Part shown: in pieces, positions 3,052 through 22,594 of the stretch
Layout: each line of letters begins with the position of its first letter
Position numbering within the stretch: position 1 is the first letter of the stretch
NCBI GenBank assembly: GCA_007376205.1
Contig: VMFU01000007.1
Span: forward strand, 14,118-78,117
Length of the DNA: 64,000 nucleotides
From: Candidatus Peregrinibacteria bacterium Gr01-1014_25
Lineage (GTDB): Bacteria > Patescibacteriota > Gracilibacteria > Peribacterales > Peribacteraceae
Reading direction: 5' to 3'
Notes under the pieces: generated by a model
Seen by the model: only the letters and a program-made list of their open reading frames with translations
Database searches by the model: none
Told to the model about the DNA's origin: nothing
Translations under genes and position numbers: made by a program

Positions 3052-3073
3052 CGGCGTAGGGCAGAGAAAAGCA

Positions 3074-3102
3074 TTGCCGAAAAGCCTCAAATCTGCTACA
3101 CT
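3074..3102 (+). promoter_or_regulatory. Sigma-70-like promoter TTGCCG-17-TACACT
   Basis: The hexamers are at 3074-3079 and 3097-3102. The first in-frame ATG (3110) is 7 nt after the -10 box. Confidence 0.45.
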
Positions 3103-3109
3103 AGTGGGA

Positions 3110-4261
3110 ATGCTCAAACAAAAAAACACAGCCGCATTGGGCATGGCGATGTCCCGCCTATGCGGGAGAGAGGGCAGGCTCCTCAAGCAGCAGCTGACCC
3201 CGCAGGAGGTGGCTGATCTCGAAGCGGTGATCCAGCAGCCCACCTTCAACGCTTTGGCGCCCCAGCAGCGCGTGAATGCCGTTCGCACAGCGATCAATCA
3301 GATTTTGCAGCGTCGTCCGGCGCAGCCTAACCAACCTGCACAACCCAATGCCCCGGCTGGCGGCAACAACGCTGCGGCGAATGTCGTCCCGCCGGTTGCC
3401 GCGGCCTTTATGCCGGGTGGTAACGCCCCGGCGCCTGAAAAAACACACAGTCTGCCGCGGGCGCTGACCATCGGCGCTTCGACCGCGGCGGTTCCGGCCG
3501 CGGCGGCGCTGGCAGCTACGGCATGGAGCCCAACGTTCCTCGGGCTGACCACCGGTCCCATGATTGGAGCTGGTGCAACCCTGGGATTTCCTGCTGCGGT
3601 TGGAGCGGGAGCTGGATACTGGCTCGGAAAAAAGGTTGGTCATCCGGTGGCGGGTACGGCCGCAGGGTTTGCCGCCGGCACGGTTGGCGGATACGCAATC
3701 CTCTCGCAGATTCCCGCTCTTGCCGGTTTGGGCTTGAGCGTATCGGCCTTGCCCGTCGCCGGTGCCATCGCTGCTCCGGCCATCGGCGCCGCCGGCGCCT
3801 ACGGTCTGGGCCGCGTTCACCGCTGGGCATGGGATACGCCGCATGATGTTGGAACCTGGGGAACCCTCGGCCGTGGTGTCCTCGCCCCTGCGACGCTCCT
3901 CGCGGGCCGACCGCTCAACTGGCTCCATGAGAAGGCGTGGAGCGCCAACAAATCGACGCACCGCGGAACGCAGCTGCTCCGGACGCTGATCGCGCCGGCC
4001 TCCGTACCGACGGGGATCGTGTGGAACCGCGCCGGCGTCGGCGCAATGCTCGGGGGCCTGTGGCGTGGGTTCGGATTCGACTACAAGCCCAAGCATGAGT
4101 CGGGCTGGAAGAGTTACACCGAGGCGCTTGGCTCGATTCCGGGCCGCATTATCCGCTGGCCGTTCTCCGCGATCGCCAAGGTCCCGGGCAAGGTGAAGAG
4201 CGCCTGGCACTACCTCTTCGACAAGACTGGCGGCGCATCATCTTCCGCTCCCTCGCACTAA
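3110..4261 (+). CDS. Hypothetical Gly/Ala-rich multi-pass membrane protein
   Basis: This ORF is in the 3041 frame. The first ATG (3110) lies 7 nt after a TACACT -10 box. There are several long G/A/L/I hydrophobic stretches. The antisense ORF is Arg-rich and looks spurious. The start is uncertain. Confidence 0.55.
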   Translation: MLKQKNTAALGMAMSRLCGREGRLLKQQLTPQEVADLEAVIQQPTFNALAPQQRVNAVRTAINQILQRRPAQPNQPAQPNAPAGGNNAAANVVPPVAAAFMPGGNAPAPEKTHSLPRALTIGASTAAVPAAAALAATAWSPTFLGLTTGPMIGAGATLGFPAAVGAGAGYWLGKKVGHPVAGTAAGFAAGTVGGYAILSQIPALAGLGLSVSALPVAGAIAAPAIGAAGAYGLGRVHRWAWDTPHDVGTWGTLGRGVLAPATLLAGRPLNWLHEKAWSANKSTHRGTQLLRTLIAPASVPTGIVWNRAGVGAMLGGLWRGFGFDYKPKHESGWKSYTEALGSIPGRIIRWPFSAIAKVPGKVKSAWHYLFDKTGGASSSAPSH

Positions 4262-4264
4262 ACC

Positions 4265-6949
4265 ATGCCTTTCCCCAATGCTCCCGACGGCATGAACCTT
4301 CCCGGCATGTGGGACCAAGACCCCAATCTGCCGCCGATGCCACAGGGCTTCGATACGCACGGAGCCGGTTGGCAGGGAATGCCGATGATGCCGATGGAGA
4401 TGCCCCAACCGATGGTACAGCCGGTGTGGCCGGGCATGCTGCCCGCCGAGGGCGAAGTGCCCTTCGAGACGCCGCTCTCCGGTCGCATGGACGCGCGCAT
4501 CCCCGGAACGCTCGAGCAGGCCAACCTGCACCGCCTCGGCGTCGAATCGCAGCATGCGGTGATGGGCGGCGAGATCAACCAGCTGGCGATGCACGAGTGG
4601 AACGCCCGTCCGTGGATGGCATATCCGTTCCTCGCGCAGCGCCTGACGCCCAGTCCCGCCCTCGCCGCGCTCGAAGAGTGGTATGCGGTGGCGTCACAGG
4701 CGGGAGACCCGCGGATGGGCGACGCGTTCGCCCAGCAGTGGGCGGTGGAGAATCCGGAGATGGCCGCGCTCGTCCGTCAGGAAATCCTGGCGCTCGGCCG
4801 AGGGCTGGGCGACGTCCAGCAGGTGCGCACGAAAACCGCCGAACATCTGCGCTCGCTCAAGGAGGATCGCGCCGGTTTGAGCTCGCTCGAAGACAACCTG
4901 CGCAAGGGCAAGGAGTTCATCGTCGACGATTTCCGCAACCACCCGATGACGAGCGTCGCGGTCGTCGTCGCGGGCATCATGCTCTACAAGATGCTCAAGG
5001 GCACGCGTGCCGGAAAATTCCTCGGCATCGGCGCGGGCGTCCTCGTCATCAGCACATTCCTGAAAGATCGCTACGGCATTCAGATCGGCGAGAAGGCCGC
5101 GCAGTTCGCGGAGGGCGCGTTCGGCAAGAAAGCCGGCGACGCCGTCCGTAACTTCCGCGACACGCTGCGCCGTCCGTTCGTCGGACCGGAAGGACAAGGC
5201 TCCGCCGTGGGCTTCCTGCAGGAGCGCATGGGCATCAACAGCAACGAAGAGAAGGTCGTTTTCCCCGCGCTCATCCGCCAGAACCCCCGCGAATTCCTTG
5301 CGTGGTACGACACCGCGCGCATGTGGCAGCACGCCGGCGTGCCTGCGACGGCCGATCTTCCGCCCGGTCTGAAAAAGGCGCTTTCCGGCCCGAGCGTTCC
5401 CACGTGGTTCAAGTCCCTGACGAAGAGCCAGAGGGTCGAGATCGTTCTCCGCGTCGCCGACAAGATGTTCGGGCACATCGCGCGCAGCGCGCCCGGCATC
5501 GATCCGGTCGCGTACGTCATGACGCGCTATGTCGAGGGCACGCAGTTCCAGGACGAGTACGGTCAGTGGCATAACTCGGTTATGAACGCGCAGCCCGGCG
5601 ACGAGCTGTACCAGATGCAGATGTTCGATCCGACGATGCGCGACATCGCGGGAGGGTTCCAGAAGCAGACGCGCAACGGCGCGAAGTCGATGGACTTCCT
5701 CGACATCCTTCTTATGGAGATGCGCGACAACGACTGGAACGATTTGAAGACCTACAACGGTGCCGGTTGGAGCGCCAACGAGGTCTGGAAGGGGACGAAA
5801 GCCGGCGCGACGGCCGCGGTCGAGTTCGGCCAGGACTGGGTCGCGCGGCCGCTCATCAACCTGTTCACGACGCATATCCCCAGCTTCTGGAAGAACGATG
5901 TGAAGCCGTTCATGGACCGCAATGGCATCACGCAGGAGAACTTCGAGAAGCAGTTCATGAAGGCGTACCGCGAAGCGAAAGCGGCGGGCAAAGATGTCGT
6001 GACCTTCGCGGAGGGGACGACGGTATGGCGTGCACTCAAGAGCATGGGCATTCTCACCTTCAATCAGGCAACGCGCGCATGGGAAATGTCCGCAGATCAG
6101 GCCGAACGTCTGGCGGTATACCTTGAGTGGCAGCGCATTGAACAGCGCGCGAATGCCGCAAAATTCCAGGAGTGGCGCCAGGACGTGTGGGATGCGAATG
6201 CATCTCAATTGCGCCCTCAAGTGCTTCCTGGCGGCATTACGGTTCCGCCCGGCCGTCGGGGATTTTTGGTCAATCCCAATGTGCCGGCAACGCGACAGAT
6301 GTGGGACCTGCTCGTGGAAATTCGCGTCATTCAGGATGGACTGCAAACAGTGCAGGGTCCGGCGGGGGAGACGGTCATCACCATCAGCGATGCCGACGCA
6401 TCACGTCTGAATGCGTGGCTGATTGCGGTGAATTCTTTCCTATTTACAACTGCTGGCCAGGGCGCCAGTAATGGTCAGGCCGGAGGAGGCCTGCCGAACA
6501 ATGTTGCCGGCAGCGGCCCTGCAGGCGGCGTGAACCAGCCGGCGAATGCGCAGACTCAACCGAATATTGCAGGAACCCATAACAAGCTGTCACCCGAGCG
6601 CGTCCAGCAACTCATCGGCGCGCTCCAATCCCGCATCGATGCTCTCGGATTCACATCAGTGAAATTGCGTCCCAGCGGATCCCATCCGGGCGATATCGAA
6701 ATTTGTCAGGCGGATGTGAACTTCAATGCGGCACAGCCCGAACTGATCGCGCGTACGAATGCCGATAATCTCGCAGTGGATATTGCAAACGCGGCACAAC
6801 TGCAAGCGATGGCTTCGGCTACTCACCAAGCTTATGCGCGATGGCTCCGTCACTTCAGCACCGAACAGCGGCGTCTTGATACAAATAAGAATCTCTTCGA
6901 TGCAAGGATACCAACGACGGGCGAGCCGGCCCCGCCTGTAGACCTCTGA
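4265..6949 (+). CDS. Hypothetical 894-aa protein with a Pro/Met/Gln-rich N-terminus and two predicted TM helices
   Basis: It starts 3 nt after the previous stop. The N-terminus is MPFPNAPDGMNLPGMWDQDPNLPPMPQG..MPMMPMEMPQPMVQPVWPGM. The hydrophobic segments are MTSVAVVVAGIMLYKML and FLGIGAGVLVISTFL. Amino-acid composition is otherwise ordinary. I recognise no family. Confidence 0.65.
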   Translation: MPFPNAPDGMNLPGMWDQDPNLPPMPQGFDTHGAGWQGMPMMPMEMPQPMVQPVWPGMLPAEGEVPFETPLSGRMDARIPGTLEQANLHRLGVESQHAVMGGEINQLAMHEWNARPWMAYPFLAQRLTPSPALAALEEWYAVASQAGDPRMGDAFAQQWAVENPEMAALVRQEILALGRGLGDVQQVRTKTAEHLRSLKEDRAGLSSLEDNLRKGKEFIVDDFRNHPMTSVAVVVAGIMLYKMLKGTRAGKFLGIGAGVLVISTFLKDRYGIQIGEKAAQFAEGAFGKKAGDAVRNFRDTLRRPFVGPEGQGSAVGFLQERMGINSNEEKVVFPALIRQNPREFLAWYDTARMWQHAGVPATADLPPGLKKALSGPSVPTWFKSLTKSQRVEIVLRVADKMFGHIARSAPGIDPVAYVMTRYVEGTQFQDEYGQWHNSVMNAQPGDELYQMQMFDPTMRDIAGGFQKQTRNGAKSMDFLDILLMEMRDNDWNDLKTYNGAGWSANEVWKGTKAGATAAVEFGQDWVARPLINLFTTHIPSFWKNDVKPFMDRNGITQENFEKQFMKAYREAKAAGKDVVTFAEGTTVWRALKSMGILTFNQATRAWEMSADQAERLAVYLEWQRIEQRANAAKFQEWRQDVWDANASQLRPQVLPGGITVPPGRRGFLVNPNVPATRQMWDLLVEIRVIQDGLQTVQGPAGETVITISDADASRLNAWLIAVNSFLFTTAGQGASNGQAGGGLPNNVAGSGPAGGVNQPANAQTQPNIAGTHNKLSPERVQQLIGALQSRIDALGFTSVKLRPSGSHPGDIEICQADVNFNAAQPELIARTNADNLAVDIANAAQLQAMASATHQAYARWLRHFSTEQRRLDTNKNLFDARIPTTGEPAPPVDL

Positions 6950-6954
6950 AGACA

Positions 6955-6989
6955 TCAAAAAAACCCGAACGCGCTTGCGCGCGCTCGGG
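6955..6989 (-). terminator. Intrinsic terminator shared by convergent genes
   Basis: The GC-rich hairpin is CCCGAACGCGC-ttgc-GCGCGCTCGGG (11 bp, one mismatch). On the minus strand it is followed by TTTTTTT (plus-strand A-tract 6957-6963). Confidence 0.7.
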
Positions 6990-6995
6990 CAATAG

Positions 6996-7670
6996 TCAGT
7001 TCCCTCCGGCATCGACCATCCGGTAGGACGGCTGAATCAGCAGACACTGTGCTTTGTGCTGCTCCCCACGGTGCGGCGGTCCGAGCTTTTGTGTCAGTCC
7101 GCCCATGACTTTCTGCATCCATGCTGTGCTGTATGCCGGTGTCCAGATGTCCTCCTGGAACACCAGCGGCACCATGCACAGTTTTCCGGGCGGATTGAGC
7201 GCTTGCTTGCTCTTATCCAGCGCATTGCAGAACACCCACGCACCGCTGATGCGTTGCAGATCCTCGCTTACCATGAACTGCACCTTCAGGATTTCCTTTC
7301 CCTTCACTCTGTTGCCCGTCGATACCGGCCTCTCGAAGGCGAAATCGACTTCCTTGACGAGAGTATCGATCTGTTCCGGAGACAGGTCTTCGTTTTTCAG
7401 GGTGAAGTGGTAGGGCTTTATTCTGAAGTTGACGTCGAAGTTCGCCTTCCGCATCTCGTTGTATGAGAGCAGGTCGGCGAGTGCCTGGGTCATGGGGAGG
7501 AGGGGATCCCCGAGCGTGACGGCAGGAGGTGCGGGATTGTTGGCAGCAGGGCCCTGCCCCGACGTTTGCTGATCGGGTTTCAGTTTCAGGACGCCTGCCT
7601 GGTGCAGGAGGCCTGCCCCCACGCCCGCCACAATCACCGTGGCGACCAGAGCAATGAGAACCTTCTTCAT
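6996..7670 (-). CDS. Hypothetical secreted protein
   Basis: The internal ATG at 7670 is preceded by GGAGAAA. The signal-peptide-like N-terminus is MKKVLIALVATVIVAGVGAGLL. A terminator follows the stop. Confidence 0.65.
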   Translation of the reverse strand: MKKVLIALVATVIVAGVGAGLLHQAGVLKLKPDQQTSGQGPAANNPAPPAVTLGDPLLPMTQALADLLSYNEMRKANFDVNFRIKPYHFTLKNEDLSPEQIDTLVKEVDFAFERPVSTGNRVKGKEILKVQFMVSEDLQRISGAWVFCNALDKSKQALNPPGKLCMVPLVFQEDIWTPAYSTAWMQKVMGGLTQKLGPPHRGEQHKAQCLLIQPSYRMVDAGGN

Positions 7671-7770
7671 ACGCGTTTCTCCGCTTGTTGGACATCCGGT
7701 CATGCACCCACAATGGGTGCCGCGCCTATGCTGAAAGGAGCTTCGGACATAAAAGCAGAATAGGTGTTAT

Positions 7771-7787
7771 TTGTCAATATTTGACAA
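7771..7787. promoter_or_regulatory. Perfect inverted repeat TTGTCAA-TAT-TTGACAA overlapping the -35 box in a divergent intergenic region
   Basis: The 7-bp arms with a 3-nt spacer were read directly from the sequence. Confidence 0.4.
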
Positions 7788-7808
7788 AATCATGAAAATC
7801 ATGATAAT
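7781..7808 (+). promoter_or_regulatory. Sigma-70-like promoter TTGACA-16-GATAAT
   Basis: The hexamers are at 7781-7786 and 7803-7808, in an AT-rich island upstream of the 7883 gene. Confidence 0.6.
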
Positions 7809-7882
7809 TGGCTAGTTTGCAGGAGGCCTGCAGACGCTGTGGTCCTTCGCAGCAGCGGTTGTTCTCAAACGGAGAAAGTCCC

Positions 7883-8563
7883 ATGCCGGAAACTGTCAAA
7901 CCCAAGAAAATCGTCTTCTACGATTTTCCACCCTTCCTCTGTGCGTGGCTGATCATCGTGCCGGGGTTCCTCCTGGCCGGCCTGCACTACATCGCCCCGC
8001 AAACTGTTACCGAAAACGTCATCGGAGCGATCTGGGTGACCTGTGTCATCGCGCTCGTGACCACGAACGGCATCGACATCGATGCCCGTGGCACCATCAG
8101 CCTCATCCTCGTGCTCGTGATCGGTGGCCTGGCCGCCTGGATCCTGTCGATCTACGGCGTGCCGGTTCTGTCCCACATCATGCGGGTCATTGGCGGGCTG
8201 AACTTCAAGATCTCGGCCGAAGCCATGCTGTCCGTCAGTTCGCTCCTGGGATTCTTTTACATCGTCATGCTCCTAAACGTGTGGATCAACCACCGATGGG
8301 AGGTGACCCCAGGTTTCATTCAACGGTCAAAATGGTTCTGGACGAAGGAAGAGCAAATACCCATTCACGGCGAACATCGAATAACGCACGAGGTTGGAGA
8401 CCTCCTGGAATGGGTGTTCTGCATGGGCGCAGGAACGCTGCACGTTCCGCATGGAAGCGGAAGAGGAAAGCCTCTGAAGCTGTTCGTGATGGGAGTGAAG
8501 AGCCTGAGCGAGTCCATACAAGGCTTCGAAGCACTGCCAGTCACAACAAGTACCACTCCTTGA
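7883..8563 (+). CDS. Hypothetical multi-pass membrane protein
   Basis: The ATG at 7883 follows GGAGAAAG. A TTGACA-16-GATAAT promoter lies upstream. There are about four hydrophobic helices (FLCAWLIIVPGFLLAGL, AIWVTCVIALV, LILVLVIGGLAAWILSIYGV, SSLLGFFYIVMLL). Confidence 0.6.
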   Translation: MPETVKPKKIVFYDFPPFLCAWLIIVPGFLLAGLHYIAPQTVTENVIGAIWVTCVIALVTTNGIDIDARGTISLILVLVIGGLAAWILSIYGVPVLSHIMRVIGGLNFKISAEAMLSVSSLLGFFYIVMLLNVWINHRWEVTPGFIQRSKWFWTKEEQIPIHGEHRITHEVGDLLEWVFCMGAGTLHVPHGSGRGKPLKLFVMGVKSLSESIQGFEALPVTTSTTP

Positions 8564-8583
8564 TGTAACAACTCTGCTGCGTG

Positions 8584-8609
8584 ACCGGGTGCGCACAAAC
8601 GCGCCCGGT
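8584..8609. terminator. Hairpin between convergent stops (possible bidirectional terminator)
   Basis: ACCGGGTGCG-cacaaa-CGCGCCCGGT forms a 10-bp stem including one G-U pair. The following U-tract is weak (TCATTT). Confidence 0.45.
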
Positions 8610-10022
8610 TCATTTCGCGATAACGACTTTGGTTCCCTGTTTCCAGCCGGTCCCATCGTTGAATTGCATGATCACGCGGATCTCCTGCCCCTTGATGCTG
8701 TCAGGCAGAGTGTAACGGAACACGCCACCGGACATGCCCGTGGGCGGCATGGGCGTGGGGGTCTGGCCCGCTGTTCCGATGCTCAATCGTATGGAGCCGG
8801 GTGCCATTTCCTTGGGGAACTGGAAGGCGAGAACATCGCCGGTTTTCTGCACGCTGCATCCGTCGAAACCAAGGGGCTTCGGTGGCACGGCAGGTGGTTT
8901 CACCAAGTCGGGAGTGGGGCCGTTTCCCGTATCGGGTCCCATGTTTTTTACAGCCTTTCCGATCAGCCCACCTCCAAGTAGCAGACCGACGGTGGCGATT
9001 GCTCCGTAGATACCGCGGCGATACAACCGCTGGCGACGTTCAACCCGCTGCTCGTACTCCGGTGTATCGTTCTGCATGACGACGTTTGGCGGACGATGAC
9101 GATGACGCTGGATTTGCTGTTCCATTGCCAGGGCAAGATCGCTCATTGCTTGCAGAACTTCGTCCAGATTTTGGATGCTGACCTCATCGGCCGGGCGCCC
9201 CGCCATAGGGTGAATTTGTCGTCCGGTTCTTCCGTCCAGTTCTCTGGCGAGAGTGGCGATCGTGCGATCTCCGAGACGCAGATCATCACGGTTCCAGAAT
9301 TCCTCCCCGACGATCAGCCTGGCGACATCGCGCATTTCATCACGGCATGCCAAATACCTTCGTCCCGTCGTACCCGTGACGACGCGGGCGGCGTCGTCAG
9401 CCGGGGTGACAGGTCGGCGATTCACTTCACGCGCCATTCGTCCACTCAATGTGTCGGCGGCCGCATACAAAGCGTCCATAGCGGGGTAGCCGCCTGCGAA
9501 TCTGCCATCACCCTGGATCGTTGTGCGCAGCAATGAGAGGAGTTTATTGATGTCCACATTGATTGGATCTCCGGTTGTTTGGGGCAATTGCCAGTGGGGC
9601 AAAATGGCAAACCCCAGGAGCAAGCCTTCCAGTCGTCCGCGAATACTGACGTAGTCTGCGTGTCTCGGTCGAACAGGAGGCGTGGCACGCGGATCACCAA
9701 TGTTCCAGTATTGGTCTGTACTCCGCTGCGGATGATTTTTATCGGTTGTTGTCATGCCCAAAAAATCTCCGATTGCCCGGCTGAATTCATCGGAATTTGC
9801 CCGACCGGTTGTGTTCAGATCATTCCAAACAGGTTCTGGCGGCGTTCCGACATCCAGTCTGACCGCCTCTGCAAGCAGCCCGAATACCGCGTCCATCCTG
9901 CGCCGTATGTGCGTGGCTCGTTCAATGTTCGTCGCGTACCGCGCATTCTCCCGTCTGGCGTCGATGCTTGTTGTAGAAGGAATCGGTGGCGTAGGAGAAG
10001 GCGGAGGCGTAGCTGTGGACAT
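8610..10022 (-). CDS. Hypothetical single-pass membrane protein with a large N-terminal domain, a TM helix and a ~110-aa C-terminal domain
   Basis: 470-aa ORF with ordinary composition. It has one hydrophobic helix, GIYGAIATVGLLLGGGLIGKAV. I recognise no family. Confidence 0.6.
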   Translation of the reverse strand: MSTATPPPSPTPPIPSTTSIDARRENARYATNIERATHIRRRMDAVFGLLAEAVRLDVGTPPEPVWNDLNTTGRANSDEFSRAIGDFLGMTTTDKNHPQRSTDQYWNIGDPRATPPVRPRHADYVSIRGRLEGLLLGFAILPHWQLPQTTGDPINVDINKLLSLLRTTIQGDGRFAGGYPAMDALYAAADTLSGRMAREVNRRPVTPADDAARVVTGTTGRRYLACRDEMRDVARLIVGEEFWNRDDLRLGDRTIATLARELDGRTGRQIHPMAGRPADEVSIQNLDEVLQAMSDLALAMEQQIQRHRHRPPNVVMQNDTPEYEQRVERRQRLYRRGIYGAIATVGLLLGGGLIGKAVKNMGPDTGNGPTPDLVKPPAVPPKPLGFDGCSVQKTGDVLAFQFPKEMAPGSIRLSIGTAGQTPTPMPPTGMSGGVFRYTLPDSIKGQEIRVIMQFNDGTGWKQGTKVVIAK

Positions 10023-10102
10023 GTAGGTATTATACTACTTTTTTGAAAATTATCAAATTTGGCGGTAACGCGAGGTTACCGCCAATGGCTGCTATCGACA
10101 TG

Positions 10103-10597
10103 CTACGGCTGCTGGACGAGAGGTTGGGACACTTTCGTCGACCACCGCTCTTCGTTTCGGGTGTCTTCCTCGTGATACGCCCGAGTCGATGTCGGCGTGG
10201 GGACGTGCGGCGGAAAACTGAATTCATTCCTGTCAGGGCCGGCGGCACGCAATCCGTGCATGTCCTTGTCATCGACGAGGACGACCCACACACGGCCTTT
10301 CGGCGGCTTGGGAAGCATGATCGTCCGCGGCTCCTTCTGCTTCCACACGTACCCGTCGATGTTGGGCGTGGTGTCGAAGTAGGGATTCCGATCGTTCGTC
10401 GGAGCATCACTCTTGCCGCCGCTGGCAGTCATCCACCAGAAGCCACCGACCAATGCCGCACCGAAGAAGAAAGGCACCCATATCCCCCAACTTTTCATAG
10501 AGTTTTCCGGGGATTCGGGGATCTTTATCGTTCGGAGAACGAAGATAAACACGACCGTGATCAGGATCAGCAGCGTACCCAGTAACCAGGGATTCAT
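10103..10597 (-). CDS. Hypothetical membrane protein (2 TM)
   Basis: The ATG at 10597 is preceded by GAGGUGG at a 5-nt spacing. The helices are WLLGTLLILITVVFIFVL and IWVPFFFGAALVGGFWWM. A TTGAAA-17-TATACT promoter lies upstream on the minus strand. Confidence 0.6.
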   Translation of the reverse strand: MNPWLLGTLLILITVVFIFVLRTIKIPESPENSMKSWGIWVPFFFGAALVGGFWWMTASGGKSDAPTNDRNPYFDTTPNIDGYVWKQKEPRTIMLPKPPKGRVWVVLVDDKDMHGLRAAGPDRNEFSFPPHVPTPTSTRAYHEEDTRNEERWSTKVSQPLVQQP

Positions 10598-10669
10598 ATG
10601 CCACCTCGTTGTTTTGACCTTCTGCGCATCTCCGTACACCGGCGATGTCGAAGGATCAGCCTAAATTGC

Positions 10670-10703: not shown

Positions 10704-10746
10704 ATTATAAAAAACCCGTGGGGAGCAGGCGTAGGGGAGAAAGGGG

Positions 10747-10773: not shown

Positions 10774-10779
10774 CGAATG

Positions 10780-15876: not shown

Positions 15877-16439
15877 TGAACCTCCCGACCCTGCGCGAGG
15901 CATTTTCAGCGCTCCTCCGCCAACGGATGGACGGCGGCGCGACACGGGCGCAGGGGATGCGCGACGTCTACGACAAACTCCGGCAGGGTCTTTCGCAGTG
16001 GCAGGAGATGCTCGCCCTCGTGCGCGACGCGGTGCGCGACGCGATCGCCGCCCGATCGCCGGTGTTTCTCGCCTCCACGGAATCACTAGACGGCGCTTTC
16101 GGGTTCCAGCCGCTGGAGCCGCAGTGGGGGCCTGATGTCCAGGATGCCGCCATCGAATCGCAGGCCGTCGATGCTCTGCAGCAGCAGCTCGCGATGCTGA
16201 CGGGCCTGGCCGGCGCGATCCGCAGGATTGCCCAGCAAGCGGACGTCGAGGTGCCGTCGGAACTAACAGGCATGCTCGATGCTCCGTTCCGTTGCGAGCA
16301 GAGCCCGGAGAAACGCCGCGAAGAGAAGCGCAGTCCGCTTGTCGCCTCCACGCGCGTCGTCGATGTCGTCAAACAGCGCATCGAACAAGTGCCGGAGGGC
16401 AAGAACATCATCGCGGAGAAGGTGCAGAAACGTTCATAG
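15873..16439 (+). CDS. Hypothetical 188-aa helical protein, translationally coupled to the preceding gene
   Basis: The ATG at 15873 overlaps the upstream TGA (ATGA). The longer 15552 ORF would overlap the previous CDS by 320 nt, and that extension has Arg-rich spurious composition. Confidence 0.55.
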   Translation: MMNLPTLREAFSALLRQRMDGGATRAQGMRDVYDKLRQGLSQWQEMLALVRDAVRDAIAARSPVFLASTESLDGAFGFQPLEPQWGPDVQDAAIESQAVDALQQQLAMLTGLAGAIRRIAQQADVEVPSELTGMLDAPFRCEQSPEKRREEKRSPLVASTRVVDVVKQRIEQVPEGKNIIAEKVQKRS

Positions 16440-16446
16440 CAATCAG

Positions 16447-16480
16447 CGTCTCCTTGGTTTCATCGGTCTCTTTGGCCTCC
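16447..16480 (-). repeat. The same motif in a 44-bp convergent intergenic spacer
   Basis: The minus strand reads GAGGCCAAAGAGACCGATGAAACCAAGGAGACG, starting 4 nt after the FNR-like stop. Confidence 0.6.
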
Positions 16481-16483
16481 TTA

Positions 16484-17197
16484 TCAAATGTACCCCTCGA
16501 TGTGCACCCGCTCTTTCGGAATGCCCCAAGAGCCCGCGCAGAGCAGCTTCACGTCGTCGACCATGGCGGGGTTGCCGCAGGCGTAGACGTCGCGCGCCGC
16601 CAGGTCCGGAACAACGGAGGGAGCAATCGTCTGCACTCTGCCGCGATGTCCCGTCCATCGCTCTGACGGTTGCGTGAGCGTGATGTGCAGCCGGGCAGCG
16701 GGCAGCGCATCGACGCATGCCTGCAACTCCGCGACCCAGAAGAGATCGTCCTCGCTTCTGCAGCCGAAAACGGCGTCCACGGCGCGGCGGTCGCCGGACC
16801 GCGCCAGATCGATGAGCTGCGCGCGAAAGGGGGCGATGCCGGTGCTCGTTCCCAGAAGCAGGAGCGGCGACGTGCCGGAGCGGAGCGTAAACACGCCGAA
16901 TGGCCCCTTCATCGCTACGCTCGTGCCTGGCCGCACTTCCTCTGCGACCCACCGGCTGGCGCGCCCACCATCCTTCAATTTGATGGCAAAGAGCAGTTCG
17001 CTTTCCTGCGGAGCGGAAGCGATGGAGTACGCGCGCGGCTGGACGTCGGCCGGGTTGTCGACCAGCGGAACATCGAGCAGGACGAACTGTCCGGCGGCGA
17101 AGGCCAACGACGACGGCCGCGTGAACGTGCATGCGTAGACGTCGCGGGCGATACGCTCGGAGGACAGGCAGGTGATGGAGTATACGGGAGTGGGCAT
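16484..17197 (-). CDS. FAD/NAD(P)-binding oxidoreductase of the ferredoxin-NADP reductase (FNR-like) family
   Basis: The R-x-Y-S FAD-binding motif is PRAYSIASAP. The NAD-binding glycine motif is LLLLGTSTGIAPF. The C-terminus has CGNPAMV..ERVHIEGY, typical of the family. It lacks the Cys cluster expected for PyrK. Confidence 0.8.
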   Translation of the reverse strand: MPTPVYSITCLSSERIARDVYACTFTRPSSLAFAAGQFVLLDVPLVDNPADVQPRAYSIASAPQESELLFAIKLKDGGRASRWVAEEVRPGTSVAMKGPFGVFTLRSGTSPLLLLGTSTGIAPFRAQLIDLARSGDRRAVDAVFGCRSEDDLFWVAELQACVDALPAARLHITLTQPSERWTGHRGRVQTIAPSVVPDLAARDVYACGNPAMVDDVKLLCAGSWGIPKERVHIEGYI

Positions 17198-17215
17198 GGA
17201 GCAGGAGATCGAGGA

Positions 17216-18343
17216 TTACGTCGATTGCCGCATGACCGCTGCGAATTCGTCGAACAGGTATGCGGCGTCCTGCGGGCCCGGCGCCGCTTCCGGATGGAAT
17301 TGTACCGCGAAGAAGCGTCCGTTCCTGTGACGGATGCCCTCGATCGTTCCGTCATTCGCATTGCGGAACCAGACGGACCAATCCTTGGGGAGCTCCTCCT
17401 TCACGGCGAAGCCGTGATTCTGCGAGGTGATGATGCAGCGCTGCGATCCCGCCTCCACGCACGGCTGGTTCGCGCTGCGGTGGCCGTACTTGAGCTTGAA
17501 CGTGTCGCCGCCGATGGCGAGCGCCATGAGCTGGTTGCCCAGGCAGATGCCGAACGTCGGAATATCCTTCTCCAGCGCGCGCTGCACCGCGCGGATCGTG
17601 GGGGTGCACTGCTTCGGATCCCCGGGACCGTTGCTGATGAACACGCCGTCAATGTGTCCGTCGTAGCCGTCCAGGTCGAAATTCCACGGGACCCGTACGA
17701 CACGCATTCCGCGCTCAAGGAGGCTGCGCAGAATGTTGCGCTTCATGCCGCAGTCGTACGCGATCACCGTAGGTGATCGCGAGCTTTGAGCATCTGCAAT
17801 TGGTTCGCCTTCCGTCGGCTCATACACCATCACCTCCTTGCAGCTTACTTCTGCTACCAGGTTTCGGAGATTCGGATCCTCGGTTTCCTCGGTTTCATCG
17901 GTTGCCTTGGTCTCCTGTCGTATGCGTCCCAACATCACCCCATGCTCGCGCAGGCGCTTGGTGAGCGCGCGGGTATCGATCCCGGTGATCCCCGGGATGC
18001 CGTGATGTTCCAGCCAGTTATGCAACGAGCTCACGGATGCATGATGGCTGTGGCACGCGCTCGCCTGGGCGACGATCACGCCACGCACGTGAATGTTTTC
18101 GCTCTCCAGGAACGCCGCGAATCCTCGGCCATCCTTCTCCTGGGTCGGCACCCCGTAGTTCCCGATGAGCGGATACGTGAACACGAGGATCTGCCCGCGG
18201 TAGCTGGGGTCGGTCAGGCTCTCCGGATACCCCACCATGCCCGTCGTGAACACGACTTCGCCGTCGGTGTCGACAGCCGCGCCGAAGGTTTCCCCTTCGA
18301 ACGTCGTCCCGTCGGTAAGCGCAAGCGATGCCATCCCTCGCAT
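17216..18343 (-). CDS. carA: Carbamoyl-phosphate synthase small (glutaminase) subunit
   Basis: The N-terminal domain is LALTDGTTFEGETFGA..GEVVFTTGMVGYPESLTDPSYRGQILVFTYPLIGNYGV. The GATase active site is FGICLGNQL, followed by VQFHPEA. The interdomain linker carries an inserted ETKATDETEETEDPN. Confidence 0.92.
   Translation of the reverse strand: MRGMASLALTDGTTFEGETFGAAVDTDGEVVFTTGMVGYPESLTDPSYRGQILVFTYPLIGNYGVPTQEKDGRGFAAFLESENIHVRGVIVAQASACHSHHASVSSLHNWLEHHGIPGITGIDTRALTKRLREHGVMLGRIRQETKATDETEETEDPNLRNLVAEVSCKEVMVYEPTEGEPIADAQSSRSPTVIAYDCGMKRNILRSLLERGMRVVRVPWNFDLDGYDGHIDGVFISNGPGDPKQCTPTIRAVQRALEKDIPTFGICLGNQLMALAIGGDTFKLKYGHRSANQPCVEAGSQRCIITSQNHGFAVKEELPKDWSVWFRNANDGTIEGIRHRNGRFFAVQFHPEAAPGPQDAAYLFDEFAAVMRQST
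17878..17915 (-). repeat. The same motif in frame in the carA linker (ETKATDETEETED)
   Basis: The minus strand reads GAGACCAAGGCAACCGATGAAACCGAGGAAACCGAGG. Confidence 0.6.
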
Positions 18344-18355
18344 CCTATCGTATCG

Positions 18356-18856
18356 TCACCAAAGCCGCACACGATTGTTCTGCAGGAGCAGGGAGTCCTT
18401 CTCCGTTTTTGCTGTTTCCAGATCGATGCGCGTCAGGTGCACGGTGAGCGGGGCAGAGCTCGGTGAATGGAGGGCAAGCGCGGATGTCTGCCGTGCCGCG
18501 TAGCGCACGCCCGCGCGGGGCGGGATCACGATGCGCTGCAGCCCTAGCCGTGGCGGATCGACCGTGAAGAATGCGAGAGGAGCGCCGTGTGTTTCCAGCC
18601 TCCGCCACTGTGCGGGCACGAGCAAAACGAGGTTCGTCGTACCGTCGTGAGCGATGTCGATCAGCATTCTCCCGCGCGAGAACGTCGCCGTCACTGAAAG
18701 TCTGCGTTGCGTGTCGTACTCCACCGCGATGAGCGGCGCGTCCGCGTCGACCGACGCCGTCGTGCGGGCGGGGGAGAGGAGCGCCGCGGTTTCTCCGAGA
18801 AGCACGGCAGTGGCGAGAGCGGCGAGCGCGGCGATGGATACGGCGATGCGGGCCAT
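18356..18856 (-). CDS. Hypothetical secreted protein (166 aa)
   Basis: The signal-peptide-like start is MARIAVSIAALAALATAVLLG. It lies 12 nt upstream of carA on the same strand. Confidence 0.55.
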   Translation of the reverse strand: MARIAVSIAALAALATAVLLGETAALLSPARTTASVDADAPLIAVEYDTQRRLSVTATFSRGRMLIDIAHDGTTNLVLLVPAQWRRLETHGAPLAFFTVDPPRLGLQRIVIPPRAGVRYAARQTSALALHSPSSAPLTVHLTRIDLETAKTEKDSLLLQNNRVRLW

Positions 18857-18908
18857 GGGAGGAGAGTAAGCATAGCGTACGGCGTTGAGTTTTACCCGCG
18901 TGTCTGGT

Positions 18909-19292
18909 ATGCTGGTGTCGATGGACTTGGATCCTCACACACTTCACCTCATCCTGCAGAAGATCCGACAGCAGATGCGCTGTCCGCAGTGCGGCGGAAA
19001 GGTGCCTGTGGAATTCGCCTCTGTCCGGATAACGGGAGATGATTTCCTTCTCTTCCAGCTGCGGTGCGAAGCGTGTGATGCCTACATCGTTCTTCACGCG
19101 TCCCTGCAAGGGGCGACCAAGGCGGCGAAAGCGCCGGCGGAGGACGGCGCACATGGACTCAACGCCTCCTCGATGCTCGGGGCCCATGAGAATGAAGTGA
19201 AACTCGTCCGCAAGGCGCTCACCCAAGCCGACGGATCGTTCGCGATGGTCTTCGGAGCATCCGAGGCGCAACCTGACGCGCCGCGCGCGTAG
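18909..19292 (+). CDS. Hypothetical zinc-ribbon protein
   Basis: CPQCGG..(26 aa)..CEACD is a four-Cys ribbon pattern. The start is ambiguous (TTG 18885, ATG 18909 or ATG 18921). Confidence 0.5.
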   Translation: MLVSMDLDPHTLHLILQKIRQQMRCPQCGGKVPVEFASVRITGDDFLLFQLRCEACDAYIVLHASLQGATKAAKAPAEDGAHGLNASSMLGAHENEVKLVRKALTQADGSFAMVFGASEAQPDAPRA

Positions 19293-19316
19293 TCGCCGTC
19301 ACGCACACAACACACC

Positions 19317-20258
19317 ATGACGCAAGAAAACATCGTTTCTCGGGAGGGAGAATCGTACGACCAGGTCAATCCGCACGCCGTTCTGGAGCGCGTGCTCGGC
19401 GTCCTGCCTCCTGATCTGCGGGCGGAGCTCCTTGCCCTGGACGACGCGCAGCTCGTCAGCGCGATCGCCGCGTACCGCGATTGGGCTGCGATGACGGCCG
19501 CGCCGGAGACGTTCCTCGGTCCGGTGAATGCGTGGGAGAATCCCTACCTGGGAACGGATCGCCTCGCGCCTGGGCGGATGCAATCGCAAGAACTCACCGC
19601 GGACGAACTCAAAGAATGCCGTTGCTACCGCGACGAGGCGCGCAAGATCGTGCTCTGCCGGTATGGGCTTTTTCCCCAGATCAAGCCCAGCCTGCGGCGG
19701 GAGGAATGGGACAAGTATGAGCGTGCGTACGGACAAGATTTTCTCAATCCCGAGACGCACCGCGACGAGACGGGAACCTCTTCGTTGTCGCCCCAGCAAG
19801 AGGCGGAGGCGGTCGCAGAGCATGCTGCTTTCGGGGCGCTCCGCGAACTTACCCTGCGTGCATGGGCTTTGCGCCGCGCCATCGATGAGCGACAGCCGGA
19901 GGAGCGCATCGCTCTCCTGTCGCGGTCGCTCGACCACTGCTTCCGGCATTTCTACGTCCGGTACTACATGCGGGAGGATGAGCACAGGCGGATGGTGCAG
20001 GGCTGGGTCGCATCGCTGCATCCGGTTTGGCGCCGGTGGGCCGACGATGTTCTCCGGCAGGTAGCCCACCTGGCGGGATATGTGCAGTTCTCCCCGGCGG
20101 CCTATCAGGAAGTACGGGACGGAGATTTGTCGCGCACCAACCGCTCGAGAACCATGCAGACGGGCAGAGTGCTCCGCATCGAGCGGCCGGTACTCTACAA
20201 GGTCGACGAACACGGGAGTCGCTTTGTGCAGATTCCCGGTATTGTGGACGTCGAATAG
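19317..20258 (+). CDS. Hypothetical 313-aa soluble protein
   Basis: The ORF has ordinary composition (W/Y/R/E-rich, helical). It starts 24 nt after the previous stop. I recognise no family. Confidence 0.55.
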   Translation: MTQENIVSREGESYDQVNPHAVLERVLGVLPPDLRAELLALDDAQLVSAIAAYRDWAAMTAAPETFLGPVNAWENPYLGTDRLAPGRMQSQELTADELKECRCYRDEARKIVLCRYGLFPQIKPSLRREEWDKYERAYGQDFLNPETHRDETGTSSLSPQQEAEAVAEHAAFGALRELTLRAWALRRAIDERQPEERIALLSRSLDHCFRHFYVRYYMREDEHRRMVQGWVASLHPVWRRWADDVLRQVAHLAGYVQFSPAAYQEVRDGDLSRTNRSRTMQTGRVLRIERPVLYKVDEHGSRFVQIPGIVDVE

Positions 20259-20306
20259 ACCCTTTTTGTCCGCTACCGCTTGCGGGGGCGTGGCACAGTG
20301 GGGCCA

Positions 20307-20336
20307 TTGCTCTACAGAGGGTTTTCATGCTATAAT
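20307..20336 (+). promoter_or_regulatory. Sigma-70-like promoter TTGCTC-18-TATAAT
   Basis: The hexamers are at 20307-20312 and 20331-20336, upstream of ATG 20361. Confidence 0.45.
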
Positions 20337-20360
20337 GCATATCGAATAAACACATACCCC

Positions 20361-20657
20361 ATGGACATCCACACCTTCACGCAGGCGATCTACGCGTTGC
20401 CGATGCTGCTCGCCAGTTTGCAGCAGCGGATTATCGACATTGCGACACACACGCCGGCCAAGCGGCGCGAGGCATTGCTGGGTGTCGCACAGACGGCCAG
20501 CGGAAAACTGCAGGCCAATGTGCAGGAACGCGCGGCGACACTCGATGCGTGGGAAGTAATGATCGCCAAGGCGGAACACGACGTCGCCCACGCGGAGCGC
20601 GAGCGCGCCGAGGCGTTGGAAGAGGCCAATGAGCAATTGCCCGATCTCGATTCTTAA
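20361..20657 (+). CDS. Hypothetical small helical protein (98 aa)
   Basis: The ATG at 20361 lies downstream of a TTGCTC-18-TATAAT promoter. The upstream ORF extension overlaps that promoter. Confidence 0.5.
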   Translation: MDIHTFTQAIYALPMLLASLQQRIIDIATHTPAKRREALLGVAQTASGKLQANVQERAATLDAWEVMIAKAEHDVAHAERERAEALEEANEQLPDLDS

Positions 20658-20668
20658 CCACACAAAGT

Positions 20669-22594
20669 ATGCGGTATTTCTCCTTCACTCTCTCGGCGGA
20701 ACAGCGGCGCCTCTGGCGCGGCCGGATGAATCAACCGCAATTTTGCCCACCGGAAATGCAGCCCAATGCCGATCGTCAGGCTATGACGCCGGAGCAGGTG
20801 AGGGCACTGGATGAGCGGATGACGTCGCTTGTTGCCCGCCGCGATAAAGTCGTGGGACGTATGAAAGCGCTGCGTGATGCAAACGTCGACGCGTCTCATC
20901 CCGCCAAACAGCTGATGGACAAGCAAAAGCAACACTGGGCGGAGCAGTACGACAAATTCAAGAACGGCTGCGATCAGCTCGCGGACCAGTACAACCGACA
21001 GGGTGCCGATTACCATGCGGTTCTCAACGAACTCGATCGTGTGCTCCCGATGTGGGAGCAGCACGTCGAGCAGACGGCGGGCGAACAAACCAAGGAACGT
21101 GCAGATGCCGTGCGGCCGGAGATTGTTGAGCAGCTTGGGCGCCTTCGCGCCAAACATCGTAACGCCGCGAACTTGATCACTAGTGCAATCGCAGGCATGA
21201 AAGAAAGCCGCAGGTACATTCCAAAGGGGACAACCGAGGTAGACAATGAGTTTTTAGCCCTTCAACGGGAGCGACGGGACATGGAAAACAAGTACGGAGA
21301 GGCGCTTCTCAACGAGATCCTCCGCGGCACGCAAAACGAGAAAGACTATGACGGCGACTACTTGGAGCACCAGGGGCTCACCTACACGTACGAGCTAAAG
21401 TATAAAAGTTTTCTCGATGACGCGACTCTCGGCGAAGAGCGTCAGAACGAGCAGGGGAAAATCATCCAGAAGAAATCCCCGGAATCCAACGGCTGGCGTG
21501 AGGTGACACCGCAGGGACTCGGGACCCAGGAGCTCGGACCGGCGGACTTGATCAAGGATTCTTGGAGCTACCTCGGTCAGGCGCCCATTGCGAACCGGCG
21601 CGGTGAGGAGGCCGTTCCTGCCAAGCCGAAGCCGACCGAAGAACCAACGAAAACCACAGAGTCCCCCGAGCAGGCGATGGTCAAGAAGCTCGATGCGGCT
21701 GCAATCGGCACGCGCGTCGAGGCGGATGGACCGAATGGAAAGATTGCCTATCAGAAGACAGAGCAAGGATGGCGCATCCGTTTCGGTAGCGGAGAACTGA
21801 ATGAAACGGGCTACCCTATTTCCTCGCGAGACATTGCGAACCAGAATCCGAAGTTCGTTTCCGGTGAGATCAAGCCGGAGGAGAAGAAAACCGCTCCGGA
21901 CGTGCTGCGCAATGATCCCAGCAAGGCGAGGATGGGGGATGTCTGGGATAAGCCCCACCCGCACTTGCGGAATGACCGTCTGCGTTTTCAGAAGGTGGGT
22001 ACGAACCGGTGGGAGAAGAAGATCGGCGACCACACAACCGCCCTGGAAACGAAGACGGACGCTCAAATGGCACAGGAAGGATTCGCGCCCACGGTGGACA
22101 GGCTGGCGAAGAAGCAGCATCCTGTAGAAAAAGCAGTCAAGATCGGCGAATGGCAGTCGAAAATGCCAGGCATGCTCACCCTTCCAAAGGGAGCGACGGT
22201 AGAACCCGGTTCGCTTTTCCTCCAGCACGAGGCGAACATCTACGTGGCCAAGGACGGGTACATCCTCAAGTCCGTCGCGTACGCCGATGCCGCATCCGCA
22301 AAGGGAAAGCCGCCGCTCGAGATCACCACTCCGGAAGAGCGCCGGCCGCTCTACCAGGCTGCGTTCGACCGCATGCCGCAGAATGTCAGAATCACCGGAC
22401 AGGAAAACAAGGAGCTTGGCGCGGTCTTCGGCGAGAAGGCCACGTACTACCGCACTGCCGAAAATTTCTATGCCATGATCAAGACAAACGATGGCGAGGA
22501 AGTCTGGAGGCGATTTGACTGGTCGAAAGGTGATTGGGACACGAACACCAAACATCTGCCACCCGACCAGCAGGCGCATAGCTCTGACATGTAG
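20669..22594 (+). CDS. Hypothetical 641-aa soluble protein with a coiled-coil N-terminal half
   Basis: Long ORF with K/E/Q/D-rich ordinary composition. It has no TM helix or signal peptide. An alternative start is at 20726. Confidence 0.6.
   Translation: MRYFSFTLSAEQRRLWRGRMNQPQFCPPEMQPNADRQAMTPEQVRALDERMTSLVARRDKVVGRMKALRDANVDASHPAKQLMDKQKQHWAEQYDKFKNGCDQLADQYNRQGADYHAVLNELDRVLPMWEQHVEQTAGEQTKERADAVRPEIVEQLGRLRAKHRNAANLITSAIAGMKESRRYIPKGTTEVDNEFLALQRERRDMENKYGEALLNEILRGTQNEKDYDGDYLEHQGLTYTYELKYKSFLDDATLGEERQNEQGKIIQKKSPESNGWREVTPQGLGTQELGPADLIKDSWSYLGQAPIANRRGEEAVPAKPKPTEEPTKTTESPEQAMVKKLDAAAIGTRVEADGPNGKIAYQKTEQGWRIRFGSGELNETGYPISSRDIANQNPKFVSGEIKPEEKKTAPDVLRNDPSKARMGDVWDKPHPHLRNDRLRFQKVGTNRWEKKIGDHTTALETKTDAQMAQEGFAPTVDRLAKKQHPVEKAVKIGEWQSKMPGMLTLPKGATVEPGSLFLQHEANIYVAKDGYILKSVAYADAASAKGKPPLEITTPEERRPLYQAAFDRMPQNVRITGQENKELGAVFGEKATYYRTAENFYAMIKTNDGEEVWRRFDWSKGDWDTNTKHLPPDQQAHSSDM

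Follow-up and report, generated by a model that had tools for sequence, protein, structure and literature searches.

Between an LTD/SNase nuclease gene and rpoC, the genome of Candidatus Peregrinibacteria bacterium Gr01-1014_25, a metagenome-assembled genome of a groundwater bacterium of the candidate phyla radiation (CPR), carries a block of genes (positions 3041-22594) in which almost no protein belongs to a described family. Analysis of this block within a 64,000-nucleotide stretch of DNA, referred to here as the window, revealed that its left-hand part is made up of sub-modules that are conserved in related Peribacteria. These are a glycine-zipper protein paired with a membrane-hairpin protein, a protein with four transmembrane (TM) segments beside an anchored exo-protein, a bitopic protein of 470 residues, and an operon encoding a 115-residue protein (f115), a polymorphic large protein and a protease. 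A short motif at the extreme N-terminus links the polymorphic protein to two otherwise unrelated families. We tentatively favour, without holding it to be probable, a reading of region 3110-16439 as a Peribacteria-specific, envelope-associated assembly built around proteins that share this N-terminal tag.

Attachment to other cells is the presumed way of life of CPR bacteria, and the molecules that mediate it are almost unknown; about half of CPR genes have no assigned function. The initial annotation of the window had taken the whole 19.5-kb block for one envelope or effector system. As a single unit the block does not stand: its genes fall into seven or more transcription units, read from both strands, and carA and a gene for an FNR-like reductase break it up. 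The idea of one system survives in part for the left 13 kb and finds no support in the right 4 kb, which hold rpoC-linked genes and ORFans.

The f115 module and its N-terminal motif

The features of the f115 operon, the genes of which have the spacing of an operon behind a promoter-like site at 11552, are as follows.

11608-11955, +: f115 (P0002), a small all-helical protein, highly conserved, the marker of the module
11977-13809, +: f610 (P0003), the large motif-bearing protein (alignment A1)
11977-12057: N-terminal motif of f610, residues 1-27
13852-13889, +: perfect 17-bp hairpin, ending 7 nucleotides (nt) upstream of the f659 start codon
13897-15876, +: f659 (P0004), with a Pro/Gln/Met-rich N-terminus and a beta-rich middle
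15385-15621, within f659: candidate BTLCP/LapG-like (transglutaminase-fold) cysteine-protease core, residues ~497-575, with Cys523 and His550
15873-16439, +: f188, helical, its start overlapping the f659 stop (ATGA)

By far the most conserved component of the cluster is f115, whose homologs form 34 clusters at 46-76% identity and occur at 22 further metagenome loci. Its AlphaFold2 (AF2) model has a predicted local distance difference test score (pLDDT) of 84.6 and consists of helices at residues 9-31, 37-46 and 52-114, the last of which is 63 residues long. Searches returned no Pfam, PDB-sequence or Foldseek match for f115, and it has no structural neighbour in the PDB or BFVD (best PDB E = 5). 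Almost always, f115 is translationally coupled to a protein that opens with a motif of about 30 residues, M-(E/H)-x-x-H-T-x-x-F ... S-x-(K/R)-E-x-R-(L/F)-(C/L/M), often followed by (T/A)-P-x-E; as read after f115 genes, the variant is ME(H/K)x(I)HTxxF…S-x-(K/R)-E-x-R-(L/F)…(T/A)P-x-E. The motif begins the large protein downstream of nearly every f115 gene, and beyond it the divergence of these proteins is complete, with bodies that are acidic, coiled-coil or of low complexity. With a strict regular expression, for which the background is 1.5% per 45-residue window, a motif-bearing open reading frame (ORF) follows 21 of 26 distinct f115 genes, and 24 of 26 once three misses had been inspected. 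As common descent relates the pairs to one another, the 21/26 is a measure of conservation and cannot be counted as so many separate events.

Members of the f1189 hairpin family, and the Gly-zipper proteins encoded upstream of f1189, open with this motif too, and downstream of it f610, f1189 and the Gly-zipper proteins are unrelated to one another. Loci of related Peribacteria (given L numbers below) were mapped by look-ups of gene context and by tblastn or hidden Markov model (HMM) searches. An HMM built from 16 proteins encoded downstream of f115 outside the window matched a Gly-zipper N-terminus (E 4.7e-4), f610 of the window (E 0.022) and a number of f1189 N-termini; all of these matches lay right at the beginning of the ORF. 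In the reciprocal search, with an HMM trained on f1189 and Gly-zipper N-termini only, the best new match was f610 of the window (E 0.0037), followed by proteins of L011, L008 and L001. The f610 motif is recovered by HMMs trained without f610, with E values of 8.5e-4, 0.022 and 0.0037. A shared motif and a small partner are features to be expected of the substrates or subunits of one pathway, and they hint at an as yet undescribed route of protein targeting or export.

The module of f115 and motif protein is duplicated within genomes, in two or three copies, some of them in tandem (L001 1985-3408; L003 5870-7647; L014 6288-8593; L021 9315-15884; L035 4595-12684). In L021, two motif-bearing large proteins follow one f115 gene in series. 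A reading of the ERRFLF variants of the motif as Tat signals was rejected, as no hydrophobic region follows the motif.

The body of f610 (residues ~28-330) is a hypervariable, Lys/Glu-rich coiled coil, while its C-terminal half is conserved, Pro-rich and coiled-coil, with a Met/Pro/Gly/Tyr-rich tail. By hydropathy there is no TM-like segment in its N-terminus. Disordered regions rich in Met, Pro, Gln and Gly are found at the C-terminus of f610 and at the N-termini of f894 and f659 in the window lineage. The strains represented by L001 and L003 are 98.8% identical in DNA, yet their f610 genes (L001 18220-20298 and L003 526-2547) encode wholly different bodies of ~330 residues between the motif and an identical C-terminal half. 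Over the body, dS (synonymous divergence) is 1.64 and dN (non-synonymous divergence) 0.62, and residues ~30-370 are barely alignable; because both kinds of site are saturated, we read the difference as replacement of an allele. The comparison indicates that the f610 body is swapped as an allele or cassette between near-identical strains (~99%), in what looks like recombinational exchange.

The transglutaminase-like core noticed in f659 by the initial annotation is real but weak, all scores lying below the family cut-offs: Pfam DUF553 4.6e-4, Transglut_core 1.9e-3 and NCBIfam LapG 3.9e-3. One f659 homolog has a Pfam match to Peptidase_C93. Against the PDB, f659 matched LapG (4fgo, E 0.014) on the sequence GDCEDFA, a motif that matches both 4fgo and 4u65, and from the PDB-sequence searches with all six family alignments nothing but the LapG motif emerged. 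Alignment A4 shows Cys523 and His550 to be invariant; at the Asp position, conservation is limited to the closer homologs. Homologs of f659 occur in L003, L014, L008, L011, L017 and L028, and a protein search found one homolog cluster; f659 is absent beside f115 in L005, L013 and L031. Hydropathy analysis detected no N-terminal hydrophobic segment in f659, the N-terminus of which is Pro/Gln-rich and of low complexity. The hairpin immediately upstream may be a translational or transcriptional attenuator, perhaps occluding the ribosome-binding site. A 13-bp hairpin lies at the same position upstream of the protease gene in L011 (12367-12396). The last gene of the series, f188, has a homolog in L003 (31% identity, E 1e-16); its ATGA overlap with f659 at 15873 is as first described.

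Gene content, conservation and selection

From third-position G+C content and codon statistics, 18 genes were assigned to 3041-22594, in agreement with GenBank locus tags G01um101425_843 to _860; at ~62% G+C, raw ORF lists for this DNA are crowded. Two of the 18 are carA and the FNR-like reductase, and these alone pass Pfam thresholds, as the initial annotation had recognised; the remainder number 16, where 17 had been counted. None of the 16 has a significant match in Pfam, NCBIfam, PADLOC or PHROGs, the last two having been run on ten block proteins with nothing usable. In and beside the block, Pfam assigns families to FNR and carA and to the two flanking genes, LTD/SNase nuclease and rpoC, alone. 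Searches of PDB sequences with profiles of the f115, f470, f235, f251 and f894 alignments gave nothing significant; matches to uL16 and TIM (E 0.01-1) look like chance. Apart from the weak core of f659, then, the profile-HMM searches that had been proposed as a check found no well-known family. Pfam-positive proteins make up 2/18 in the block and 19/20 of those tested in the rest of the window (Fisher p = 1.5e-7), and this concentration therefore exceeds the CPR background. Of ten proteins looked up by exact sequence, seven are single-member clusters. A literature search found no paper describing the cluster or the N-terminal motif.

The 16 genes appear to be genuine coding genes, on the evidence of best-frame codon scores and of dN/dS values well below 1 wherever these are measurable. 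Codon log-likelihood, under a model trained on the housekeeping genes of the window, peaks in the annotated frame for all 19 genes scored, and codon usage in the block is host-like. In comparisons with more distant genomes, where dS is near saturation, dN/dS is 0.13 for f115, 0.19-0.35 for f894, 0.38 for f406, 0.42 for f659 and 0.6-0.7 for f610 and f188. Purifying selection, which the initial annotation had named as a check, is clear at strain level: between L001 and L003 there are 9 synonymous and 0 non-synonymous changes in f115, 15 and 0 in the C-terminal half of f610, and 7 and 2 in f659.

Homologs of 11 of the 16 genes were found in contigs of related Peribacteria. Those of the 406-, 894-, 235-, 251-, 470-, 115-, 610-, 659- and 188-residue proteins recur together in independent contigs (L001/L003, L002/L014, L008, L011, L017 and L028) despite local inversions and reshuffling. 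The recurrent layout runs from the LTD nuclease through f470, f251 (-), f235 (+) and the pair of Gly-zipper and f1189 hairpin genes (-, in this order) to f115, and from there through the large protein and f659, in series, to carA and FNR (-), and then, after an interval, to 166-like (-) and 135-like genes and rpoC. The window lineage and L001/L002 hold the same families with local inversions and translocations, and certain adjacencies are kept: the Gly-zipper gene before that of the hairpin protein, f251 beside f235, and f115, motif protein and f659 in series. The LTD nuclease is a conserved left flank, its homologs preceding the cluster in L001, L002, L011, L013 and L035. Thus the co-location of most of these genes in relatives, on which the initial annotation had staked its reading, was found, but carA, rpoC and FNR share the same synteny; as it takes in housekeeping genes such as carA and rpoC, co-location alone is no proof of function. 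Content between the anchors varies by lineage, with a toxin-antitoxin pair in L013 and extra modules in L003, L014 and L021. The L013 pair is PhdYeFM/ParE (2951-3471), inserted between LTD nuclease and cluster. In a relative, GCA_943354765.1 (L005 1-9989), f115 is preceded by genes for proteins of >1696, 1338, 270 and 120 residues, which gave no Pfam match and no similarity to the window families, and is followed by a 90-residue coiled-coil protein in place of a motif-bearing one, an alternative layout of the cluster.

The envelope-type genes to the left of f115, with their signals, are as follows.

4-3051, +: LTD/SNase nuclease (Pfam LTD 3e-24, SNase 3e-11), with a C-terminal TM anchor (987-1005)
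3110-4261, +: f406, a Gly/Ala-rich (A 18%, G 13%), glycine-zipper-like membrane protein with hydrophobic segments
4265-6949, +: f894 (P0001), with a Met/Pro-rich disordered N-terminus and Trp-rich helical domains; 3-nt gap to f406
4916-5074, within f894: conserved membrane hairpin FRN-TM-YKMLK-TM-DRY, residues ~218-270 (alignment A2)
6963-6990: strong bidirectional hairpin terminator between convergent f894 and f235, with a 12-bp stem, 9 G-C pairs and then a T-run
6996-7703, -: f235, an anchored or secreted domain of ~200 residues, TM or signal segment 15-33, likely start 7670
7781-7808: promoter-like site of f251, TTGACA-16-GATAAT
7883-8563, +: f251, four hydrophobic segments (4-TM) and a conserved C-terminal soluble domain
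8610-10022, -: f470, bitopic, with a ~335-residue cytoplasmic Arg-rich helical part, TM 337-355 and a ~100-residue external domain
10029-10056: promoter-like site of f470
10103-10639, -: 178-residue membrane protein, TM 17-35, lineage-specific, coding frame supported
10670-10698: promoter-like site of the 178-residue gene
10780-11382, -: 246-residue gene, a signal-peptide protein with a Tyr/Pro-rich stretch, lineage-specific, good codon score
11552-11580: promoter-like site of f115

The ORF of f406 opens at 3041, with a likely start at 3110 or 3143, and its homologs in L001 and L002 are 31-39% identical. It has NPW(V/L)(I/V)G in common with the 383- and 395-residue motif-bearing proteins encoded upstream of f1189 in L017/L021; this element, and the place of its gene immediately before that of the hairpin protein, assign f406 to the Gly-zipper family. 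The gap at 4262-4264 had been correctly noted. Four homologs of f894 are 50-55% identical to it. The pattern F-x-D-x-FRN–TM–YKMLK–TM–DRY/F, detected by regular expression and alignment, is common to f894 and a 1381-residue f1189 member in L008, and f894 may be distantly related to the f1189 hairpin family. A reading of f406 and f894 together as a split f1189 was rejected, the hairpin being equidistant from the N-terminus in f894 and f1189, and because f406 corresponds to the separate Gly-zipper gene upstream of f1189. The AF2 model of f894, from 5 sequences, is poor and unreliable (pLDDT 50), and Foldseek gave meaningless matches with it (E >= 0.35 only). When 185,579 species-representative genomes were scanned with the f894 profile, a single contig was recovered, from an uncultured Candidatus Peribacteria bacterium, and for this reason we regard the family as very narrow.

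Homologs of f235 occur in L008, L011, L017 and L028 and always adjoin f251, which has homologs in L008, L011 and L028; those of f470, in L001, L002, L008 and L011, are fast-evolving. No homolog of the 178- or 246-residue gene was detected in the related loci. The ORF of the latter extends to 11520, its likely start is Met47 at 11382, and the hydrophobic segment lies at 52-70 of the long ORF. Hydropathy supports the classes that the initial annotation had drawn up, namely membrane proteins (3110, 7883, 8610 and 10103) and signal-peptide proteins (6996, 10780 and 18356, each with an N-terminal hydrophobic segment), and the mix of membrane, extracytoplasmic and large low-complexity proteins is as it was described. 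The class of large proteins that lack an export signal must give up f894, whose conserved internal hydrophobic hairpin shows that it is not simply cytoplasmic. The claim of real promoters fares less evenly: strong sigma-70-like matches (10-11 of 12 positions) lie correctly upstream of the four genes at 7883 (+), 11608 (+), 10022 (-) and 10639 (-), but the total of promoter-like sites in the block is not above shuffled expectation.

To the right of the f115 operon lie the following genes.

16484-17197, -: FNR-like reductase (passes Pfam threshold)
17216-18343, -: carA (passes Pfam threshold)
18356-18856, -: 166-residue signal/anchor protein, an rpoC companion
18885-19292, +: 135-residue CxxC zinc-ribbon-like protein (weak zinc-ribbon matches), an rpoC companion
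19317-20258, +: ORFan of 313 residues, coding frame best of six
20358-20657, +: ORFan of 98 residues, coding frame best of six
20669-22594, +: ORFan of 641 residues, coding frame best of six
22812-26702, +: rpoC, with no rpoB before it and rpsL, rpsG and fusA after it as usual

Homologs of the 166- and 135-residue proteins are encoded directly upstream of rpoC in L005 and L031, even where the rest of the cluster is absent, and by this criterion the genes at 18356-19292 travel with rpoC and are not part of the cluster. In the window, in L005 and in L031 alike, rpoC has two upstream neighbours, a small gene of zinc-ribbon type and one for a signal-anchor protein. The zinc-ribbon gene of L005 and L031 directly adjoins rpoC, with a short spacer where the window has the ORFan trio; the trio is therefore a lineage-specific insertion. 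A search of 1.84 billion representative proteins yielded no homolog of any of the three at E <= 1e-3. The N-terminus of the 641-residue protein (FSFTLSAEQRRLW) is similar by eye to the motif, and a diverged pair of f115 and motif protein was considered for the 98/125- and 641-residue ORFs; it was rejected as unsupported, as the f115 HMM does not match the 98/125-residue ORF and the motif HMMs do not rank the 641-residue protein. PADLOC produced no more than two matches (E about 0.01), each of them to coiled-coil sequence within the 641-residue ORFan. The carA and FNR-like genes are inverted relative to L005, L013, L014, L017 and L028, where carA is on the strand of f115 and has beside it a formyltransferase gene that is missing in the window.

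The G+C content, ~0.62-0.66 elsewhere, has two troughs, one of 0.55-0.57 between 6 and 12 kb and one of 0.59 between 20 and 22 kb, and both coincide with genes that evolve fastest or are lineage-specific. AT skew reaches 0.26 at 12-14 kb and 0.19 at 20-22 kb, strongly positive values that reflect coding rich in Lys and Glu. Elsewhere in the window, 40302-42782 (-) encodes an 826-residue VirD4/TrwB/TraG-like type IV coupling-protein ATPase (TrwB_AAD_bind 4.6e-12, T4SS-DNA_transf 1.2e-10), ~18 kb from the block; the window has no other ATPase of secretion type or of the FtsK/HerA superfamily. The VirD4-like protein is flanked by a PLD-like protein and by a sortase fused to an S-layer-homology (SLH) domain (38982-40292, +). 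A 637-residue protein with nine DUF4215 Cys-rich repeats (44381-46294, +) matches the 'cysteine-rich large extracellular proteins' of Peribacteria (PMC4736985).

Competing readings of the cluster

In the assembly that we tentatively favour, f115 would bind the motif as its chaperone or adaptor. A conduit or anchor in the envelope would be made up of f251 with its four TM segments, the bitopic f470, the anchored f235 and the pair of Gly-zipper and hairpin proteins, and the polymorphic motif-bearing proteins might be delivered to this envelope part, or displayed or exported through it. Where present, the LapG/BTLCP-like f659 would process or release them, its level held low by the hairpin over its ribosome-binding site. 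The proposed assembly leaves out the rpoC companions at 18356-19292 and the three ORFans at 19317-22594. A role in export or assembly would be plausible; a surface apparatus with its substrates, as the initial annotation had it, is an inference. We favour an outward-facing role because of the cassette-like variation of the bodies and because the Peribacteria genome paper describes large extracellular proteins that differ between strains and for which a role in attachment is suspected (PMC4736985). Such a role could be interaction with other cells, which would fit the proposed symbiotic lifestyle of Peribacteria. A bolder form of this proposal, which we hold to be unlikely, makes the motif a new class of targeting or secretion signal and f115 its chaperone, serving with the Gly-zipper and hairpin proteins, f251 and f470 a novel export or display pathway, ATPase-independent or remotely powered, that would carry strain-variable proteins to partner or host cells.

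Several observations weigh against the proposed assembly. As the initial annotation had stated, no ATPase, secretin or pilin is visible, and Pfam and NCBIfam find none of these, nor any known translocon component, among the 18 block genes; the nearest candidate ATPase is the VirD4-like protein, ~18 kb off and, as far as tested, unlinked. No hydrophobic signal sequence is present on the motif-bearing proteins. Within the window, f894 lacks the N-terminal motif and its comparison with f1189 is weak (hhalign E 1.2e-3, probability 19%), while the possible copy in f406 (SRLCGREGRLLKQQLTPQE) is degenerate and was seen by eye only, the motif HMMs reaching no significance for f406. Since f659 is missing beside f115 in L005, L013 and L031, processing cannot be essential. 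The synteny extends to carA, FNR and rpoC, the genes are divided among at least seven separate transcription units on both strands, and all genomes compared belong to one class, so that co-location may be in part inherited gene order.

The last of these points are the substance of an alternative that has an appreciable chance of being right, doubtful as we find it: that there is no single system but a patch of lineage-specific genes of unrelated function, kept side by side by inheritance of gene order, the only true functional unit being f115 and its motif protein with or without the protease. The synteny shared with carA, formyltransferase, FNR and rpoC would be expected, as would transcription units with their own promoter-like sites and the lineage-variable content (the toxin-antitoxin pair of L013, the modules of L003, L014 and L021, the 178- and 246-residue genes and the ORFan trio). 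Nevertheless, the N-terminal motif links three otherwise unrelated families in different transcription units, and adjacent pairs survive inversions and translocations between lineages. The lack of signal peptides on the motif proteins and of a secretion ATPase in the block would also suit a membrane scaffold on the cytoplasmic face, concerned with architecture, division or remodelling, in which the motif is a peptide docking onto f115 as a hub or onto the cytoplasmic domain of f470. The coiled coil and low-complexity tails of f610, the similar Met/Pro/Gln-rich disordered regions of f894 and f659, and the protruding 63-residue helix of f115, well suited to coiled-coil pairing, are in keeping with such a scaffold. 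We think it improbable, however, in view of the extracytoplasmic proteins in the cluster (f235 and the external domain of f470), the extreme divergence across lineages of the proteins encoded directly downstream of f115, and the cassette replacement of the f610 body between near-identical strains, the last two being more typical of proteins that face other organisms than of scaffolds inside the cell.

Two further readings can be given very little weight. A gene for a helical protein of ~100 residues that stands immediately before those for large polymorphic proteins, which have a conserved N-terminus and occur in paralogous copies, recalls type VII secretion, and a divergent locus of WXG100/LXG or PE/PPE-like type would have f115 as the helical partner, the motif proteins as LXG-like, and f470 and f894 as EssB-like and EsaA-like, whose topologies we take theirs to resemble. 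One f115 homolog even bears the Joint Genome Institute (JGI) name 'uncharacterized protein YukE'. Yet the 18 block genes include no FtsK/SpoIIIE (EssC/EccC) ATPase, none of the 34 f115 members has a WXG100, LXG, PE or PPE match in Pfam even at E = 1, and the confident f115 model has no Foldseek match in the PDB (best E = 5), with the profile search of PDB sequences also negative; the WXG100 reading prompted by the YukE name was rejected on these searches. An identity of all or part of the block as a mobile element, the remnant of a prophage or a defence island is just as hard to credit. The falls in G+C content at 6-12 kb (0.55-0.57) and 20-22 kb (0.59), the insertion of the ORFan trio relative to L005 and L031, and the toxin-antitoxin pair in the L013 version speak for mobility, but PHROGs and PADLOC revealed no integrase, transposase, phage or defence family, there are no significant flanking repeats, and the sole tRNA gene of the window, at 61712, is not nearby. 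Moreover, the core occupies the same chromosomal position in many lineages, and codon usage in the block matches the host.

With these results, an anonymous block of hypothetical genes becomes a defined and testable set comprising a tag, a small partner that folds confidently in prediction, a candidate protease and strain-variable cargo. Should the tag prove to be a targeting signal, it would define a new route of export or assembly, and candidate surface or effector proteins could be listed by its sequence across Peribacteria metagenomes. Should it not, the block is still narrowed down, to a handful of small conserved modules together with three ORFans and the two genes linked to rpoC.

Comparison with known systems

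Apart from the protease core of f659, no component resembles a described family, and the cluster is far from known systems. LapG and other BTLCP proteins (Peptidase C93) have their likeness in f659 in its candidate transglutaminase-fold core, the GDCEDFA sequence and the invariant Cys and His, and like LapG beside LapA, f659 adjoins a large low-complexity protein, its possible substrate. It differs in scoring below the family cut-offs and in the third catalytic residue (Asp), which is not conserved in distant homologs. Moreover, LapG is periplasmic, whereas f659 has no signal peptide and carries an extra N-terminal region of ~480 residues, and the partners LapD, LapB, LapC and LapE of the Lap system are not present with it.

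With double-glycine leaders and their C39 ABC exporters, the cluster has in common a short N-terminal leader on unrelated cargo and a papain-superfamily cysteine protease alongside; here, however, there is no GG motif and no ABC transporter in the block, and the cargo is of 400-1400 residues and not a peptide. Some copies of the motif, S-x-x-E-R-R-(F/L)-L-(F/K), are superficially like the Tat signal S-R-R-x-F-L-K. They lack an h-region and A-x-A site, the sequence after the motif is acidic or Pro-rich, and many copies have one Arg.

Type VII systems have the EssC/EccC ATPase, for which the block has no counterpart, and the motif described here also heads integral membrane proteins. No sequence or fold similarity to the f115 module is detectable in LXG or PE/PPE proteins, and where LXG proteins have a conserved helical N-terminal domain of ~200 residues, the motif is linear and of ~30 residues. 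Nevertheless, in the LXG/Lap-WXG (type VIIb, Firmicutes) and PE/PPE (ESX) loci, as here, a gene for a helical protein of ~100 residues stands directly upstream of that for a large protein, and the f115 pairs share with them a conserved N-terminus, a variable remainder, paralogous copies and variation of the body at the level of strains.

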